A stretch of DNA of 64,000 nucleotides from a virus: IMG/VR virus record IMGVR_UViG_3300050011_000393, positions 1 through 64,000 of that record; one strand, 5' to 3'. Each line of letters begins with the position of its first letter. Positions within the stretch are counted from its first letter, which is position 1. The notes under the pieces were generated by a model, which worked only from the letters and a program-made list of their open reading frames with translations, was not told the origin of the DNA and searched no databases. Positions 3,823-11,756 of the stretch are shown here, in pieces. The translations under genes were made by a program, and so were the position numbers.

Positions 3823-3900
3823 AGGGGAATAACGCAGTCTGGTCAGCGTGCTTGCTTTGGAAGCGAGAAGCCGCAGGTTCGAATCCTGCTTCCCCTACCA
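3823..3900 (+). tRNA. tRNA-Pro(TGG)
   Basis: AGGGGAA/TTCCCCT acceptor, CTTGC-TTTGGAA-GCGAG, GGTTCGAATCC, CCA. Confidence 0.92.
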
Positions 3901-5562: not shown

Positions 5563-8500
5563 GTGGCTGACGAGACGACCCAGACCCCTGCGCCTGCACC
5601 AGTACCCGACTCGATTCCGATTGACTTGGAGCCGTCTGCTGCTCCTGCATCTATTCCTATCGACTTGAACCCAACATACGACCCGACTCAGGACAAGCGC
5701 GCGCCGTTCCTCAAGACGAATCTAAATCCAACGGGCCCAACCATCCAAGAGGCGCATAAACCTCTGACACAACGCGTCAAAGAAGCAGTCACAGAAAACA
5801 TTCCTGAATTTTCGCAGAGGACTGTCAACGACCCGAAGTACGGCACAAAATCTTTCCTGCCTGACTCAGATGTAATGACTCAGCAGGAACGGAAAGACCT
5901 GCCCGTTGTCGCGGGAGCCATGGACGTGGCCAGTGAGCTGGCTTCCCCTGGGACTATTGGCACCATCGCTGCGACGGCGGGCTTAGGGGAGGCTCCTGCG
6001 ATAGTTTCGAAGGTCGCGTCTGCGTTATTCGCTGGCCAAATTGCCAAATCCGTTTACGACCAGTACCCGGCGCTGCAGGCGGCCGTCGACAAGGCCCAGC
6101 ACGCGAAGTCTCAGCAAGAACACGATGATGCTTTTGCGGATGCGCAGAAAATCCTGACGCACATGGGCGTCGACACCGCGTTCGGGTTGCTGGCGGCGAA
6201 GCACGGCGCGGAGGGCGCGAAAGATTTGCTGGATGCAACCACGGGCAGCGGAGTGCCTGATGAAGCGTCTACCCTGAAAGCGAAGTATCAAGAGAACCAA
6301 ATTGCACCCCGCGCGCCAGAACCGGAAGAGAAACCCGCTGCGCCTGAAGACGTTCATCCCGAGATGAATCGGCAGACGGTCAAGGAACTGCAGCATCTGG
6401 GGTATTCAACGCAACACATTACCAATTTCAATATCACTGAAATTCGCGACATTCTCAAAAATCAAACACCTGCATCTGAATATAAATTTTCCACGACCGA
6501 CCGTCGGTGGAATCCTGATCTACCAAATCCGGCAACAGCCAAGCCCGCTCCTGAGCCAGATAAGTTCGCCGACCAAGGCGGCAAGCTAGTTGGGCCTCAA
6601 CCAGAAACTGAAGCAGCCGCCGAAAAGCCTTCTCAGACCGCCGAAAACGCCACGGAAACCGCAGACCCCGTCGAAGACCTTATCATGTCCGACAAGATTC
6701 AAGGTAAGAAAGTGAAGGGTGCGACACCTAAGGTTGAGCCGACCGAATTGGCGCGCAGCGCGGGGCCGACCCCGAGCGGATTGATTGAGCGTACAACAGG
6801 CGACCCGAAGTCTGACGCCGCCATCAAGGCGGGAGGTGCGGTTCCCGCAGGCACAATGCTTGGGCTAGTCCAGTTTCACGACCCGAAAACAGGCAGCACC
6901 TTGGCGCTAAAGCCCGAGGCGGTCACGCCCGAAGCGGTCCAGCAACATCTCGCCGCGTCCCGCAAAGCCTTTGGCCTGACTCCGGAGCCTGATGCGCTGG
7001 CGGGAGTCGGCGGTAAGTTTGTAGGCCAGCAGCCTGCTGCGGCACCAGCACCTTATCATCCTGACTTACAAAAGGTTATTGATGATAACGGCGGTACGCA
7101 CTCAAGCGCAGCCAAAGCGGTTTCGCCAGACGAAGGGTCTTTTATTACGCCTGACGGAAAATTTGTTAGCGTAAAAGGGACCCATGATATTGCTATTGGC
7201 CGCGCGAATCCAAAAGACCGACCAGAAGGCCGCATCGATAATCGCCCTAGTTTTTTAGATGATACTGGCGCGATACGTACCAGAATGCGTGTTACCAAGG
7301 CGGGTAGTTCATTAAGTGTGACTGTCCCTAAAAACGGGATTTCTCCTGAACAATTAGATGCGTTGCGGCGGTCAGTCCAAGCTATGGGGCCGTACGGGAA
7401 TTTGGTAATAGAACGTTCAGATATCAGCCGAAATAACAGGGACACCGCCAGCACAACGAAAGAGCAGGTAAAGCCCTACCAAGTTGAGGACGCCCTCCGC
7501 GAAATCGGCGCGCATCCCGAGCAGCAAGATATTCTATCCAAAGAACTCCATACTCCGCACAAACAAACATATGGGATGGAAGTCACAGACGCTGAAGGCA
7601 AAGTTCAGAATGTGCCAATCGAAGCGCATTCTGCCAAGCAGGCGCTCAACACCATCGTAAAGAAATTCCCAGACGCGCATCGCTGGCGTTTGGCGACCGC
7701 GCCTGAAGAAAAGGCACCCTCAACTGACTACTCTGTACCTGCAGGCAAGATACAGAAAATGAAAGAGTCGGCAGGACGGTCTGAGATTCACACTATCCGT
7801 CACGAATTAGGACATATATTCGCAGGGGCGGCTGTGGGCATGAAAACTAACGGGATGCTTAGTTCTTCGCACCCCGCTATGCCGAGCGATGCGCGCGCTG
7901 CGGTTGCTTGGAGTTCTGACGGTTTGTATGAGAAGGGGCGCATCAAACCCGACAAAAGACTGGCGGTAATTCAGGCGTCTCTGGGCGGCATCGCCGCCGA
8001 CAAAGTGTTCAATGATACCCCGCGTTCCGCGAATCATAATTTCGATATCCGCGCTGGCGGGGATGGAACAAAAGCCTACGAACTGTTGCGCGACGCAGGG
8101 TATAATCATGCGGACGCGATGGAAAAAATGCACGAGCTAATTGATACAGAAGTCGAACGTCTGAGTCATCCAGCAATCATGTCCGTTATACATGAGAACG
8201 CAGGTGTGCGCGAGCCAGGTTTGTCGCGGCAGTATCACTACAGTCCCGAGCGGCTAAATTCAATCGTGGCGGAAGCCAATAGGAGAATGACCGATGAAAA
8301 ATATACCGAAAAGCGTGACAACGGAGCAGCTAATGGGGCAGTTAACCAAGGACGTGAAGGCGATGTCGCCCGAACAGAAAGCGGAGTTTCGCCTGCAGTT
8401 GGAAGCGAGCCTAAAAAAGAAGGGGTAATCAATGACAACGGAGCAACTGGGTCAGGCGGTTCTGAAATCAGTCCAGCAGATGTCGCCAACGGAAAAAGCG

Positions 8501-11316
8501 GAAGTCCTCAAGGAACTGGAGAAGGCGTTCCAGAAAAAGAAGACCTAGGCCTCGCCAAAGGAGAAGAGGACGGCATAATCTCCGAAGAGAAGATCAAAAA
8601 GGCCAAGGATTCCGAAGAGCCGCCTGAAATTGAGCCGAACAAAAAACTTCAAGCATCTGCGCAGCGATACGCCAAAGCACAAGGCATGGCTCCCATTAAT
8701 CACGAGCCTGTTGAAGCGGACCCTGAGCACGCGCGAGAAATCGCCAAAATTTACGAAGAATCAAAACATGAACCAAATAACCCGCGCGTGAAGGCGGCGT
8801 ACGATGCGTTGAAAGCAGAGACGCTGGCTCAATTCCACCATCTCCGTGACGACCTCGGTTTGAAGTTCAAGCCGCAAGAGGAGGACCCTTACAACTCCGC
8901 AGAACAAATGATGGATGACATCCGCAAGAACAATACTTTGAAAGTTTTCACTGGCTCGAGCACGGGCGAGGATCATCCTCTGTCCGCTATCGCCCCAGGA
9001 ACTGGCGGCCAGTCATACAACACTGTCTTCCGTTGGGTTCATGACGCCATGGGCCATGCTGCTGGCGGAAACGACTTCAGTGAAAACGGCGAGAAGTCTG
9101 CGACCGAAGCGCACGCACAAATGTATAGTGACACCGCGCGCCCCGCGATGCGCAACGAGACCGAAGGCCAGACATCGTGGTTCTTCCACAACCCTGAAGT
9201 TGAATCTGGCGCGAAACAGCCCGGCGACTTTGCGGAACAAAAAGCCGCACTCATTCAAGATGTCTCTCACGACTGGCATGAAACAATTGGTAAGGCTGCA
9301 GCCGAAGACGAAGCGGGCGGCATTAATCCTCGGACAGGAAAATCCGACACGATGGGCATCGGAACCGAGATTTTGCCTGAGTTCCGGCAGCCACTTGGTC
9401 ATGCGCCGACGCCTGCGGATTTCCAGAAGTTTTATGACAGGCATAAAGATTTATTTGATCAGCACCCAGAATTGCGCGTTGGTTTTGATAACATGTCGGC
9501 CGTAGAAGGCGGGCACGAGATCAATATTGGAGCGGTAGGTCCGAACGCCGCGAAGGTCGCCGCGAAGTTAGATCAAAAATCCGCGTTCGATATCAAGAAG
9601 GGTGAAGTCATTCCGACGGGCGGCAGCGGTTTGAAAACTGACTTCAAAGATTATCCTTTGGAAGACCGCATCAAGGATTTGAAGAGCACTCCTACACGCG
9701 CGGATAAACTCGCAGTCCGAGCGCAGCGCACAATCGCGAAGTGGAGACAAAGCGCCGCGTTTGACCCATCGGATGGAGGCACCCCGCAGGCCCCTGCAGC
9801 GCCGCCAGCACCTAAGGGATCGGAGAATATTCCGACAGTCAGCACTCGTACGCCCAGCATCACCGCGAACAAACAAAGCATCGAGAACCACTCGGATAAC
9901 TCACTGACTTCGGATATGCAAGCGGCCGCTGCGGCCCCGGGCTTCCTGAAGAAATTGGCCGACCGTGTCAGCGACATTCCTGGCTTCATTGACCCAGGCG
10001 GAGATGATCACGAAGCGCGCACCAACGCATACATCCGCCATGTCGCGGACAATACGAAATTCGTTCAGAGCAAGGTCACGCCGGAAGAGCATGCGACTGA
10101 TAGTCAGTGGTATCCAGTCGGCGCGCACGAGCGCGGCATTGACGTCGCGAAGAAACACGGGCTAGATGTTCATCAAGCATATGCCATCACGGCGGCACTT
10201 TCACCTTTGACCGACTGGGACCAGAACACCGCCCAGGCGGAGCGCGCGGCGGAAATCTGGAAGAATCAACAAGACACCAAGTTCGATACGAAAATGCGGA
10301 AGGCGGCCGACGAGATTTTGACCGTCCCTGAGATGGAACATTTCCGAAAAATATTCAAGAGTCTCGAAGGAAAAAAACTGGGAGAACTGAAGACGGAAGG
10401 CGAGCAGGCATGGTGGTTACGCCTGTACGAAGAGGGCCACTACGACCGCTCGTTTCAAACATGGAATCCGGATGGCACCTCTGCAGGGCTGGCCATGAAC
10501 TCTGACGGGGTTACTCCGAAGGCAATGAGCTGGAGTTTCCAAAGTCTGATTGAGAACGCTATCAGTATTATGAAGGATGGGTCTCCCGAGAATATCAGCA
10601 AGTCTCTTGGAGAAGGGCACAAAGTTCGAAATTTCTATAACAACCAGTTGTCTCCTGATGACCCGCGTTTTTTAACAGTTGACACACACCAGGTCAATAT
10701 AGGACAATTGAGGCCGATGTCCGGTTCGTATCCCGATGTGGCTGATAACTTTGGTACGCCGACCAACGTGCCGCATGGCTTGAGCGGCACTTATGTGCTG
10801 CACGATGCAGGGACGCGCCTGGCCGCCAAGGAGCTCGGGATCGACATTCCTAGCCGCTTGCAGTCATCCGGCTGGGTGAAGATTCGCAAAGTATTCCCGA
10901 ACAAGTTTAAGACGGAAGAAAATCTCGCGGTCATAGATGCGATATGGAAGGAGCACACAGATGGAAAAATCACAGCCGACGACGCCAGAAACAGAATCTG
11001 GGACTTCGCCGAAGGATGGAACCGAGATGCTGCTCGAAAAGTTCGGAATCCCAGTAACTCGGGAGAATTATCTGAACCTGGCGTTCGCGGGGAAGCCTCC
11101 GCAGCCAATGGATGGGGAGATCGAGGCGATGCTGCCGAGGAAGTTTCGGAACCAGGAGTAGATGACACCTCTTTCGACTTCGGGGCGAACGAGAAGCCTG
11201 TAGTGGCGGCCTCGCGCAAGAGTAAAGGGTCCGAGAAATCATATGCCAAGAAGGCAGCCGAAGTGCAGGGCTTGATCGCAGCCCTACATGATCTCAAGAC
11301 CCCAGGTAAAAAATAA
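5563..11316 (+). CDS. Large polyvalent protein (1917 aa) with M41-like metallopeptidase, second HDxxGH zincin-like domain and C-terminal putative DNA-acting domain
   Basis: TIRHELGH...LGGIAAD...GGDG; FRWVHDAMGH...ETEGQTSW; AITAALSP...KVRNFYNN...LTVDTH; domains joined by disordered linkers. Confidence 0.75.
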   Translation: MADETTQTPAPAPVPDSIPIDLEPSAAPASIPIDLNPTYDPTQDKRAPFLKTNLNPTGPTIQEAHKPLTQRVKEAVTENIPEFSQRTVNDPKYGTKSFLPDSDVMTQQERKDLPVVAGAMDVASELASPGTIGTIAATAGLGEAPAIVSKVASALFAGQIAKSVYDQYPALQAAVDKAQHAKSQQEHDDAFADAQKILTHMGVDTAFGLLAAKHGAEGAKDLLDATTGSGVPDEASTLKAKYQENQIAPRAPEPEEKPAAPEDVHPEMNRQTVKELQHLGYSTQHITNFNITEIRDILKNQTPASEYKFSTTDRRWNPDLPNPATAKPAPEPDKFADQGGKLVGPQPETEAAAEKPSQTAENATETADPVEDLIMSDKIQGKKVKGATPKVEPTELARSAGPTPSGLIERTTGDPKSDAAIKAGGAVPAGTMLGLVQFHDPKTGSTLALKPEAVTPEAVQQHLAASRKAFGLTPEPDALAGVGGKFVGQQPAAAPAPYHPDLQKVIDDNGGTHSSAAKAVSPDEGSFITPDGKFVSVKGTHDIAIGRANPKDRPEGRIDNRPSFLDDTGAIRTRMRVTKAGSSLSVTVPKNGISPEQLDALRRSVQAMGPYGNLVIERSDISRNNRDTASTTKEQVKPYQVEDALREIGAHPEQQDILSKELHTPHKQTYGMEVTDAEGKVQNVPIEAHSAKQALNTIVKKFPDAHRWRLATAPEEKAPSTDYSVPAGKIQKMKESAGRSEIHTIRHELGHIFAGAAVGMKTNGMLSSSHPAMPSDARAAVAWSSDGLYEKGRIKPDKRLAVIQASLGGIAADKVFNDTPRSANHNFDIRAGGDGTKAYELLRDAGYNHADAMEKMHELIDTEVERLSHPAIMSVIHENAGVREPGLSRQYHYSPERLNSIVAEANRRMTDEKYTEKRDNGAANGAVNQGREGDVARTESGVSPAVGSEPKKEGVINDNGATGSGGSEISPADVANGKSGSPQGTGEGVPEKEDLGLAKGEEDGIISEEKIKKAKDSEEPPEIEPNKKLQASAQRYAKAQGMAPINHEPVEADPEHAREIAKIYEESKHEPNNPRVKAAYDALKAETLAQFHHLRDDLGLKFKPQEEDPYNSAEQMMDDIRKNNTLKVFTGSSTGEDHPLSAIAPGTGGQSYNTVFRWVHDAMGHAAGGNDFSENGEKSATEAHAQMYSDTARPAMRNETEGQTSWFFHNPEVESGAKQPGDFAEQKAALIQDVSHDWHETIGKAAAEDEAGGINPRTGKSDTMGIGTEILPEFRQPLGHAPTPADFQKFYDRHKDLFDQHPELRVGFDNMSAVEGGHEINIGAVGPNAAKVAAKLDQKSAFDIKKGEVIPTGGSGLKTDFKDYPLEDRIKDLKSTPTRADKLAVRAQRTIAKWRQSAAFDPSDGGTPQAPAAPPAPKGSENIPTVSTRTPSITANKQSIENHSDNSLTSDMQAAAAAPGFLKKLADRVSDIPGFIDPGGDDHEARTNAYIRHVADNTKFVQSKVTPEEHATDSQWYPVGAHERGIDVAKKHGLDVHQAYAITAALSPLTDWDQNTAQAERAAEIWKNQQDTKFDTKMRKAADEILTVPEMEHFRKIFKSLEGKKLGELKTEGEQAWWLRLYEEGHYDRSFQTWNPDGTSAGLAMNSDGVTPKAMSWSFQSLIENAISIMKDGSPENISKSLGEGHKVRNFYNNQLSPDDPRFLTVDTHQVNIGQLRPMSGSYPDVADNFGTPTNVPHGLSGTYVLHDAGTRLAAKELGIDIPSRLQSSGWVKIRKVFPNKFKTEENLAVIDAIWKEHTDGKITADDARNRIWDFAEGWNRDAARKVRNPSNSGELSEPGVRGEASAANGWGDRGDAAEEVSEPGVDDTSFDFGANEKPVVAASRKSKGSEKSYAKKAAEVQGLIAALHDLKTPGKK
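8294..8428 (+). CDS. Nested +1-frame micro-protein A (44 aa)
   Basis: AGGAG-N8-ATG; MKNIPKSVTTEQLMGQLTKDVKAMSPEQKAEFRLQLEASLKKKG; paralog of 8432..8548. Confidence 0.7.
   Translation: MKNIPKSVTTEQLMGQLTKDVKAMSPEQKAEFRLQLEASLKKKG
8432..8548 (+). CDS. Nested +1-frame micro-protein B (38 aa)
   Basis: AAGGGG-N6-ATG; MTTEQLGQAVLKSVQQMSPTEKAEVLKELEKAFQKKKT. Confidence 0.7.
   Translation: MTTEQLGQAVLKSVQQMSPTEKAEVLKELEKAFQKKKT
10961..11161 (+). CDS. Nested +1-frame small protein C (66 aa)
   Basis: AAGGAG-N7-ATG; globular-looking LLEKFGIPVTRENYLNLAFAGKPPQPMDGEIEAMLP while the main frame is low complexity. Confidence 0.65.
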   Translation: MEKSQPTTPETESGTSPKDGTEMLLEKFGIPVTRENYLNLAFAGKPPQPMDGEIEAMLPRKFRNQE

Positions 11317-11756
11317 TGACTCAGGCCCAAAAAGATCGAGCTAAAGATCTCAGTCTTCAGCGCAAGTACGGCATCACCCTTATCCGACAAAACGAAATCA
11401 GAGCAGAACAGAACAATCGATGCAAAACCTGCGGAGTAGAGTTCACCGCAGAGAATCCTGCCTGTACCGACCATTTTCACTTTCGCATTACGACACGAAA
11501 ACTTGGTAAAAAGAACTGGGAAGCTGTTAGCATGGACGAACGCGGGGTCGTGAGCGCAATCGTCATCTCAGGTCGTCTTACCCAGAAAGCGGCGCGGGCA
11601 GATATGCGTGGCGTTATGGTCCCTCGCTCGGTGCGCGGGCTCCTCTGCAGGAAATGTAATCGCGGACTCGGATATATCGAGCGATTCTTCGACGCCGCCC
11701 GCCATCCCGAAAATCTCCTCCCTGTCATCGAATATTTGAAATCCCGCTTGACATAG
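11316..11756 (+). CDS. Endonuclease VII-like homing endonuclease
   Basis: RKYGIT...QNNRCKTC...TDHFH...VRGLLCRKCNRGLG, with an insertion between motifs. Confidence 0.8.
   Translation: MTQAQKDRAKDLSLQRKYGITLIRQNEIRAEQNNRCKTCGVEFTAENPACTDHFHFRITTRKLGKKNWEAVSMDERGVVSAIVISGRLTQKAARADMRGVMVPRSVRGLLCRKCNRGLGYIERFFDAARHPENLLPVIEYLKSRLT

Follow-up and report, generated by a model that had tools for sequence, protein, structure and literature searches.

Small genes nested in the +1 frame of a phage polyvalent-protein gene and their pairing with the domains encoded just upstream

The closest known arrangement to the one described here is that of the lambda-type spanin genes Rz and Rz1, which occur in embedded, overlapped and separated layouts and encode two proteins that associate in a complex (Kongari et al. 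2018, PMC6139136). In the first 64 kb (hereafter the window) of the 96.7-kb IMG/VR virus record IMGVR_UViG_3300050011_000393, which is judged 97% complete, the gene for a 1917 amino acid (aa) polyvalent protein harbours three small open reading frames (ORFs) in its +1 frame, named here o1, o2 and o3; o1 and o2 follow a peptidase-like module with an HExxH motif, and o3 follows a DUF7178 module. As with Rz/Rz1, the larger gene contains a small one in a different reading frame, and o3 with DUF7178 is found in 49 nested, 15 start-overlapping and 1 separate layouts. Unlike Rz/Rz1, the o3/DUF7178 pair has no sequence, fold or functional relation to the spanins and lacks a lipobox and membrane segments; furthermore, the host frame here appears to be a disordered inter-domain linker of a giant multi-domain protein, and two small-gene families are present, each tied to a different enzyme-like domain.

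The long gene itself resembles the polyvalent proteins, giant phage proteins with several enzyme-like modules that include an HExxH metallopeptidase (Iyer, Burroughs, Anand, de Souza and Aravind 2017, PMC5512222). That account contains neither a glycosylase-like (HhH-GPD) assignment of DUF7178 nor nested genes; a term search of it yielded neither "overlap" nor "frameshift", and "nested" is used there solely of structures. In polymorphic toxin/immunity pairs (Zhang et al. 2012, cited in PMC5512222), a small gene lies immediately 3' of the enzymatic module and travels with it, as is seen for o1 and o3, and the arrays and fusions of o1 and o3 that lack an enzyme are reminiscent of the orphan and poly-immunity loci of the same systems. 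Unlike in those toxin systems, the small gene here is contained within the long ORF, out of frame with it; the long protein is presumed to enter the cell along with the phage DNA and not to be secreted, and both toxicity and neutralisation are putative. A further comparison is offered by Ugi, p56 and SAUGI, which are small (56-112 aa) acidic inhibitors of uracil-DNA glycosylase (UDG) from phages or mobile elements (PMC3711442, PMC2018632, PMC3902945). The o3 family is likewise small, acidic and paired with a glycosylase-like domain; unlike these inhibitors it shows no similarity to them in sequence or fold (PDB profiles, Foldseek, VIA-align), and whereas they inhibit the host family-1 UDG, o3 would act on the phage's own HhH-GPD-type domain. 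Embedded phage genes are themselves known, and no description of nested small genes in polyvalent linkers was found in the literature searched; what is new here is their presence inside polyvalent-protein linkers, where the linker was probably overprinted on an older gene.

Three nested reading frames and their conservation

The host gene, the three nested ORFs and their Shine-Dalgarno (SD) sites, with spacers in nucleotides (nt) and the isoelectric point (pI) of each product, are as follows.

5563-11316, plus strand: polyvalent protein gene, the host frame of the nested genes; GTG start, 1917 aa
8281-8286, plus strand: SD site of o1, AGGAGA, 7-nt spacer, made up of the main-frame Arg-Arg codons AGG AGA
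8294-8428, plus strand: o1, +1 frame, ATG start, 44 aa, basic, pI 9.8, core TTEQL...MSPEQKAEF
8420-8425, plus strand: SD site of o2, AAGGGG, 6-nt spacer
8432-8548, plus strand: o2, +1 frame, ATG start, 38 aa, pI 9.2, tandem paralog of o1
10946-10953, plus strand: SD site of o3, GGAAGGAG, 7-nt spacer, made up of main-frame W-K-E codons
10961-11161, plus strand: o3, +1 frame, ATG start, 66 aa, acidic, pI 4.9, core GIPVTRENYL.LAF.G.PP...E.EA.LP

The starts of o1, o2 and o3 are all 2 modulo 3 while the main frame is 1 modulo 3, and the three ORFs are positioned where the main frame turns rich in G, S, E and R, directly past the HELGH module and the KVRNFYNN/TVDTH (DUF7178) module. The sequence-only reading of this DNA had described three SD-led ORFs in the +1 frame of the 1917-aa gene at the onset of linker after enzymatic domains, and its coordinates, frames, SD sites and positions were all borne out.

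The DNA was compared with 20 related viral loci, collected by means of an alignment of the big protein, and the nested peptides were sought by tblastn and profile searches. An o1-type peptide is present in all loci from L002 to L014, and an o3-type peptide in all loci with an intact 3' side, even where the main-frame match is only 27-29% identical; the +1 ORFs are conserved in homologs, where the earlier reading took non-conservation as grounds against its idea. Pairwise nucleotide variability was then computed for each main-frame codon position in sliding windows, with a whole-gene scan against 9 homologous loci. Over the C-terminal module variability peaks at main-frame position 3 (0.43-0.71); from nt ~10945 to 11150, across o3, that of position 3 drops to 0.15-0.24 and position 1 rises to become the most variable (0.36-0.45), a pattern that reverts past the o3 stop. 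The third codon position of the +1 frame falls on main-frame position 1. In the o1 region the variability of main-frame position 3 falls from 0.55-0.73 to 0.17-0.30, and over all 1917 codons clear flips occur solely at nt 8293-8410 and 10993-11110; the window at nt 8563 is marginal, with positions 2 and 3 tied at 0.57 each and low coverage. The flip at o3 is replicated in an independent clade of 16 single-domain DUF7178 genes, where position 3 goes down to 0.05 over the TRENYL core. Variability thus has a three-base period in the +1 phase, with +1 position 3 highest and position 2 lowest, and the frame-specific selection that the sequence-only reading had proposed to look for is seen as this flip at o1 and at o3. 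Judged from these alignments, o1, o2 and o3 are almost certainly real protein-coding genes within the +1 frame, each with an initiation site of its own; each is under purifying selection in its own frame, and they do not behave as by-products of the long frame.

The translation starts are conserved together with the peptides. The layout tggaagga-N7-ATG of o3 recurs in related loci, and the ATG of every o1-type ORF lies 7-8 nt past AGGAGA or GGAGAG. The o1 SD site coincides with the main-frame Arg-Arg that ends a conserved helix, ...AEAxRR, of the peptidase-like module; this Arg-Arg is written AGG-AGA in 11 of 12 loci, and AGG and AGA account for 5.5% and 9.9% of the Arg codons in these genes. 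A TGA stop in the +1 frame at 8288-8290 lies one codon ahead of the o1 ATG. For o3, ATG is the start in 52 of 55 distinct homologs; the longest possible ORF begins at 10937, and 10961 is considered the conserved start because the homolog L014 carries a stop between the two ATGs.

The long frame is kept open across o3 in a manner that can be counted. Within o3 a main-frame stop is created by T at the third position of an o3 codon if the next codon starts with AA, AG or GA; in 49 nested o3 genes T is found at none of 968 such at-risk sites, though it occupies 15.6% of other third positions, whereas in free-standing or start-overlapping o3 genes T is found at 15-19% of at-risk sites, equivalent to 3.6-4.3 main-frame stops per gene. 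The long frame is therefore actively kept open, and the same DNA there encodes protein in both frames. The residues that the main frame specifies in the overlap are free to vary, and strings that recur among them (GELPGAG, for instance) mirror the o3 core; the main frame is nevertheless read through the overlap, since a motif just past o3 is conserved in it.

11167-11190, plus strand: main-frame motif TSFDFGAN, just past the o3 overlap, conserved in alignment A1

Within this motif T1869, F1871, F1873, G1874 and N1876 are nearly invariant in the same alignment. The main-frame product over the overlaps is thus regarded, on alignment evidence, as a weakly constrained linker. The sequence-only reading held that the small genes were overprinted on the linker; the direction is probably the reverse, with the linker written over an older small gene, because o3 also exists free-standing, in distant phages and in bacterial metagenome-assembled genomes (MAGs).

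Two further ORFs over the polyvalent gene were considered. A 154-aa ATG ORF at 9041-9505 (plus strand) also lies in the +1 frame; it was rejected as a fourth nested gene and is probably no gene because the variability pattern is that of a normal main frame from nt 9223 on, nt 9041-9220 being poorly covered. A 229-aa antisense ORF at 10791-11480 (minus strand) covers the polyvalent 3' end, the whole of o3 and the first part of the endonuclease VII gene; it was rejected because the flip at o3 follows the o3 phase and not the antisense phase. Its third codon positions fall on those of the main frame, which is the usual reason for antisense frames of this kind to be open.

The two small-gene families and their upstream domains

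The two modules that precede the nested genes are the following.

7513-8290, plus strand: HExxH peptidase-like module, aa 651-909, with HELGH at nt 7801-7815, ending in the conserved ...AEAxRR helix
9832-11007, plus strand: DUF7178 module (Pfam DUF7178), aa 1424-1815, with an HhH-GPD DNA-glycosylase-like fold in its predicted model

The pairing of o3 with DUF7178 was counted from both sides. A scan with o3 alone found a DUF7178 match directly upstream in 76 of 80 viral loci (one of them degraded to fragments), and the complete modules end ~40 nt ahead of the o3 core; in the remaining four loci the domain is cut by the contig start (one), upstream sequence is lacking (one) or no match was found (two). 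Of the 55 distinct o3 peptides, 52 have a DUF7178 match upstream: 43 lie within the 3' tail of the DUF7178 ORF, 8 overlap it at its end only and 1 stands apart, and 49 of these 52 are in frame +1. The other 3 lack such a match. In L015-L020 the o3 homolog is a separate gene of 66-77 aa whose ATG lies ~20 nt ahead of the stop of a 650-690-aa DUF7178 gene. At least 529 DUF7178 loci are on record; a scan with DUF7178 alone, over 69 non-redundant loci with room downstream, found o3 in 64 (49 nested in +1, 10 start-overlapping in +1 and 5 in +2), plus one divergent o3 copy; three or four loci have no o3. Co-occurrence is accordingly 93-95% in both directions with modules just 30-40% identical to each other, and the same o3/DUF7178 pair recurs in very different domain architectures. 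Individual departures are recorded as well: an o3-type gene with no DUF7178 detected upstream is present at L022:3986-4189, where a 750-aa ORF without family assignment ends at 3836 and o3 is overlapped by a second ORF, of 135 aa, and at L023:3986-4153; L141, L171 and L157 contain DUF7178 with no o3-type ORF, the +1 frame being full of stops in L141 and L171.

A profile search of 1.84 billion proteins assigns at least 1500 representative clusters to the o3 family at E ≤ 0.001, of which 233 reach E ≤ 1e-10; the best 150 members listed are 44-206 aa long. The family core is D..L..MK..GIP.TRENYL.LAY.G.PP..L..E.EAELP, and its members are acidic, with a median pI of 4.3-4.7. Neither o3 nor 50 of its relatives matched Pfam, PHROGs or NCBIfam, and the o3 profile matched nothing in the PDB. 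The o3 model is predicted to consist of three short helices with a confident core at residues 20-57; the N-terminus, over the part shared with the conserved DUF7178 end, is disordered. Foldseek found nothing for this model, and the best VIA-align Z was 2.4. The best score in the ESM Atlas was 0.77, to an unnamed viral cluster.

The AlphaFold model of the DUF7178 module has a predicted local distance difference test (pLDDT) score of 91.6. In VIA-align its top 21 rows are all HhH-GPD glycosylases or the related queuine salvage enzyme, at Z 9.3-4.8, with unrelated chains at Z ≤ 4.2; these scores are to be read with the caveat that helical folds give middling Z values. The best match is the Ogg Tm1821 (Z 9.3, root-mean-square deviation 3.8, 178 aligned), followed by QNG1, MagIII, EndoIII, AGOG, OGG1, Mag1, MutY and AlkA down to Z 4.8. 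Foldseek found nothing for the model, the DUF7178 profile had no match in the PDB, and no Pfam glycosylase family matched. Like the HhH-GPD glycosylases (EndoIII/Nth, OGG, AGOG, MagIII, MutY) and QNG1/DUF2419, with which it aligns over ~170-230 residues, the model shows the two-lobed helical arrangement of the superfamily; unlike them, DUF7178 has extra N-terminal helices, no Fe-S cluster motif and no sequence-level match to a solved chain. In the family alignment G260, K264, P275 and D284 are invariant and H263 nearly so; helices 252-259 and 263-273 flank a hairpin, and the invariant Pro...TxDTH lies ~20 residues past the helix-hairpin-helix. In the superfamily a helix-hairpin-helix with a conserved Gly leads into a Gly/Pro-rich loop and, ~20 residues on, a catalytic Asp, joined by a Lys in bifunctional enzymes; the succession of Gly/Lys and then Asp in DUF7178 would presumably correspond to the Lys/Asp pattern of bifunctional Nth-type enzymes. 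By its model, therefore, DUF7178 resembles the HhH-GPD DNA-glycosylase fold; no mention of DUF7178 was found in the literature searched.

In the peptidase-like module H97, E98, G100 and H101 of the HExxH motif are invariant (alignment A8). The module has no Pfam or NCBIfam match at E up to 0.01-0.1, and a PDB profile search returned no peptidase; its sole match at E < 0.001 is a short repeat of a lysozyme entry (E 3.5e-05, 33 residues), the others being at chance level. The sequence-only reading had called the HELGH module M41-like, a label that finds no support in Pfam, NCBIfam or PDB profiles, where only the HExxH motif is present; an M41 (FtsH-like) assignment was rejected as there is no sequence match to the M41 family model. 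In all collected DNA an o1-type ORF is found within 150 nt past 17 of 20 distinct peptidase-module 3' ends, always in frame +1, and where two peptidase-like modules are present (L003, L024 and L114) one o1-type gene lies behind each.

The o1 family has 95 gene-called relatives of 41-122 aa. Between o1 and o2, 17 of 36 residues are common in the +1 frame (9 of them via synonymous codons) versus 10 of 36 in the main frame, and o2 is, as judged from this comparison, a local tandem duplicate of o1 specific to the lineage of the window's phage; most other loci have a single o1-type copy, and L011 has a double unit. Tandem Repeats Finder returned nothing, o1 and o2 being too diverged. The TTEQL...MSPEEKAE pattern may be read as two helices. 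Neither o1 nor o2 matched Pfam, PHROGs or NCBIfam; a sub-threshold resemblance of o1 to Spy/CpxP, DUF3106 and BESS was set aside as weak and treated as compositional.

By these counts, o1 and o3 belong to two small-protein families that lack annotation, and each family goes with the domain whose coding sequence immediately precedes it. The co-occurrence of nested peptide and upstream domain, which the sequence-only reading had suggested examining, is evident in the 76 of 80 loci for o3 and the 17 of 20 modules for o1, and its idea that each pair is shuffled as a unit agrees with the pairs found together across very different architectures and with the duplicated peptidase modules that each have their own o1. 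Its broader claim that each effector module carries its own small gene stands for o1 with the HExxH module and o3 with DUF7178; it does not extend further, as no flip is seen in the N-terminal 650 aa or in the covered parts of aa ~1220-1420.

Putative roles and rival explanations

It is hypothesized that an ancestral operon consisted of an enzyme gene followed by a small partner gene, and that loss of the enzyme stop codon would have produced one long ORF reading through the small gene in another frame; this read-through would have fused the modules while the small gene was retained. The basic, helical o1 and o2 would be partners of the HExxH peptidase-like module and the acidic, three-helix o3 the partner of the DUF7178 module, made from the same mRNA in the producing cell. 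There the small protein may hold the enzyme inactive, in the manner of an antidote, until it is packaged or delivered; the next option is an assembly or ejection chaperone. On the genomic evidence the balance tips slightly towards o1/o2 and o3 being functional or physical partners of the adjacent upstream domain. If they are, holding the enzyme inactive is predicted to be their most likely role, ranked above that of an assembly or ejection chaperone; that the small proteins are putative inhibitors specifically is possible, and on its own rather doubtful. More tentative still is the wider proposal in which o1 and o3 would be antidotes to two virion-delivered enzymes, a metallopeptidase and an HhH-GPD-type glycosylase, with free-standing arrays and fusions serving as orphan antidotes against the injected effectors of superinfecting phages.

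Several observations weigh against partnership. o3 has no sequence or fold similarity to a known inhibitor or chaperone by PDB profiles, Foldseek or VIA-align; three to five DUF7178 loci and three peptidase modules have no detectable partner; free-standing o1 and o3 genes and o1-o3 fusions occur in MAGs and metagenomes with no DUF7178 or peptidase nearby; and the tight pairing could in part reflect inheritance of "domain plus linker" as one recombination unit.

The free-standing copies are found on MAG contigs of Acidobacteriota, Terriglobia, Pseudolabrys and a proteobacterium, which have o3 and o1 genes and no DUF7178 within 4 kb. One MAG contig has an o1-o3-o3 array, and on another an o3-type gene adjoins a tyrosine-recombinase (integrase) fragment. 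The array, made up of an o1-type C-terminus and two o3-type genes overlapping stop-to-start, has neither DUF7178 nor a peptidase nearby (Acidobacteriota MAG contigs, L121:3622-4446; L117:164-1042), and the o3-type gene of the other contig comes after the recombinase fragment. Four free-standing proteins (P0092, P0233, P0264 and P0326) fuse the o3 and o1 cores, and other free-standing o3 proteins are joined to zinc-ribbon-like segments and a recurring D(R/K)xFL..xGI motif. In P0187, P0194, P0210, P0216, P0264 and P0276 this third short motif, D(R/K)xFL(R/K)xxGI, stands at either end, and the same proteins have repeated Cys/His-rich segments (CRGCGARTFEQH..CRH). The combinations suggest a wider kit of small modules that combines with o1 and o3. 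Since free-standing o1 and o3 exist without the enzymes, the small proteins can work without the adjacent domain or are orphan antidotes there; the arrays and fusions fit orphan immunity genes and independent function equally well.

The strongest rival accepts the nested genes as real and holds that what they encode works apart from the neighbouring domains, whether as regulators or as small proteins that are made early or directed at the host. The surrounding genes would simply have fused around them, and adjacency would be a trace of ancestry and linkage and not of a physical partnership. This account is a serious possibility without being the probable one. It draws on the free-standing o1-o3-o3 arrays and integrase-adjacent o3 with neither DUF7178 nor peptidase within 4 kb, on the fusions of o1 and o3 to each other, to other small modules and to zinc ribbons, and on the DUF7178 and peptidase modules that lack a partner; it has to contend with a co-occurrence of 93-95% both ways despite DUF7178 identities of 30-40%, with the retention of its own o1 by each duplicated peptidase module, and with a conserved frame relation and spacing. 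Linkage alone is not considered enough to account for the pairing because it would erode over such distances.

A second rival regards the +1 segments as alternative C-termini produced by programmed +1 ribosomal frameshifting, which would give peptidase-o1 and DUF7178-o3 isoforms. In its favour, SD-like sequences can stimulate frameshifting, as in prfB, the frame relation is nearly always +1, and the segment begins no more than ~40 nt from where the domain stops. Entry by frameshifting was rejected as very unlikely: the ATG is conserved and has an SD site 6-8 nt ahead of it, the +1 frame is closed by a stop one to two codons ahead of the o1 ATG both in the window (8288-8290) and in several loci, free-standing homologs begin at the same Met, and o3 is in frame +2 at five to six loci; furthermore, the best 150 family members are all 206 aa or shorter, so that an in-frame fusion of DUF7178 with o3 is not seen among them. 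The weakest rival, that no +1 protein is made and that conservation reflects nucleotide-level constraint (recombination linkers, RNA structure or chance open frames), has in its favour that the region is a linker between shuffled modules, and its chances are negligible given the three-base variability period in the +1 phase, the identical residues retained through synonymous codons in o1 and o2, the free-standing gene-called homologs in hundreds to thousands and the confident small fold predicted for the o3 core.

The host gene, its surroundings and significance

The 1917-aa protein has 86 large homologs of 1050-3350 aa, in many of which domains such as ART-PolyVal (PF18760), LPD22 (PF18834), InPase (PF18823), Radical SAM (PF04055) or GNAT (PF00583) are found; DUF7178 also occurs among them, and the order of the modules is shuffled. 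Because of these domain sets and the shuffled module order, the ORF at 5563-11316 is classed, from its homologs, as a polyvalent protein in the sense of Iyer et al. 2017 (PMC5512222). Its module content is highly variable, since the close homologs at L003:7383-13871 and L011:7191-15527 have Radical SAM, GNAT and DUF3293 domains that the window's protein lacks. No match to the gene came up in a blastn search of 50,697 phage records, and a viral-contig scan seeded with the single protein found nothing. The motif TSF[DN]FGAN occurs in 13 of the 86 homologs, always as a single copy ~40 residues before the C-terminus, and could be a candidate docking or processing site; FNFGAN as a general linker or cleavage site was rejected, as it is a single copy near the C-terminus in only these 13 of 86.

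The gene is preceded on its 5' side by a major head protein gene (1025-2020) and followed on its 3' side by the endonuclease VII gene, a DNA transfer protein, a UvsX-like recombinase and DNA polymerase. The endonuclease VII-like gene lies at 11316-11756 (PHROG 2914, E 1.6e-17), and the polyvalent stop and its ATG have one base in common (TAATG, 11314-11318), which suggests that the two genes are translationally coupled.

Gene callers report one giant ORF at this locus, and three genes are missed. The o3 family alone has at least 1500 representative clusters, and a member of it lies concealed in the +1 frame after most of the DUF7178 domains sampled from viral metagenomes, so that annotation systematically passes over a large part of what phages can encode. 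The arrangement also points to a route by which giant polyvalent proteins may arise, in which neighbouring genes are fused by other-frame read-through of a small gene and a disordered linker results. DUF7178 gains a testable assignment (HhH-GPD-like, with an invariant Lys and Asp) and a named small acidic partner candidate, and the polyvalent-protein metallopeptidase likewise gains a named partner candidate. Should the partners prove to be inhibitors, base-excision enzymes could be controlled with them as new tools, and they would explain how a phage renders its delivered effectors harmless in the producing cell. If the wider antidote proposal is true, effector and antidote would be made from one mRNA and shuffled as one cassette, orphan o1 and o3 would protect a resident prophage or the host (Acidobacteriota and other genomes), and o3 would be the first protein inhibitor family for HhH-GPD glycosylases, in a phage counterpart of the polymorphic toxin-immunity systems.

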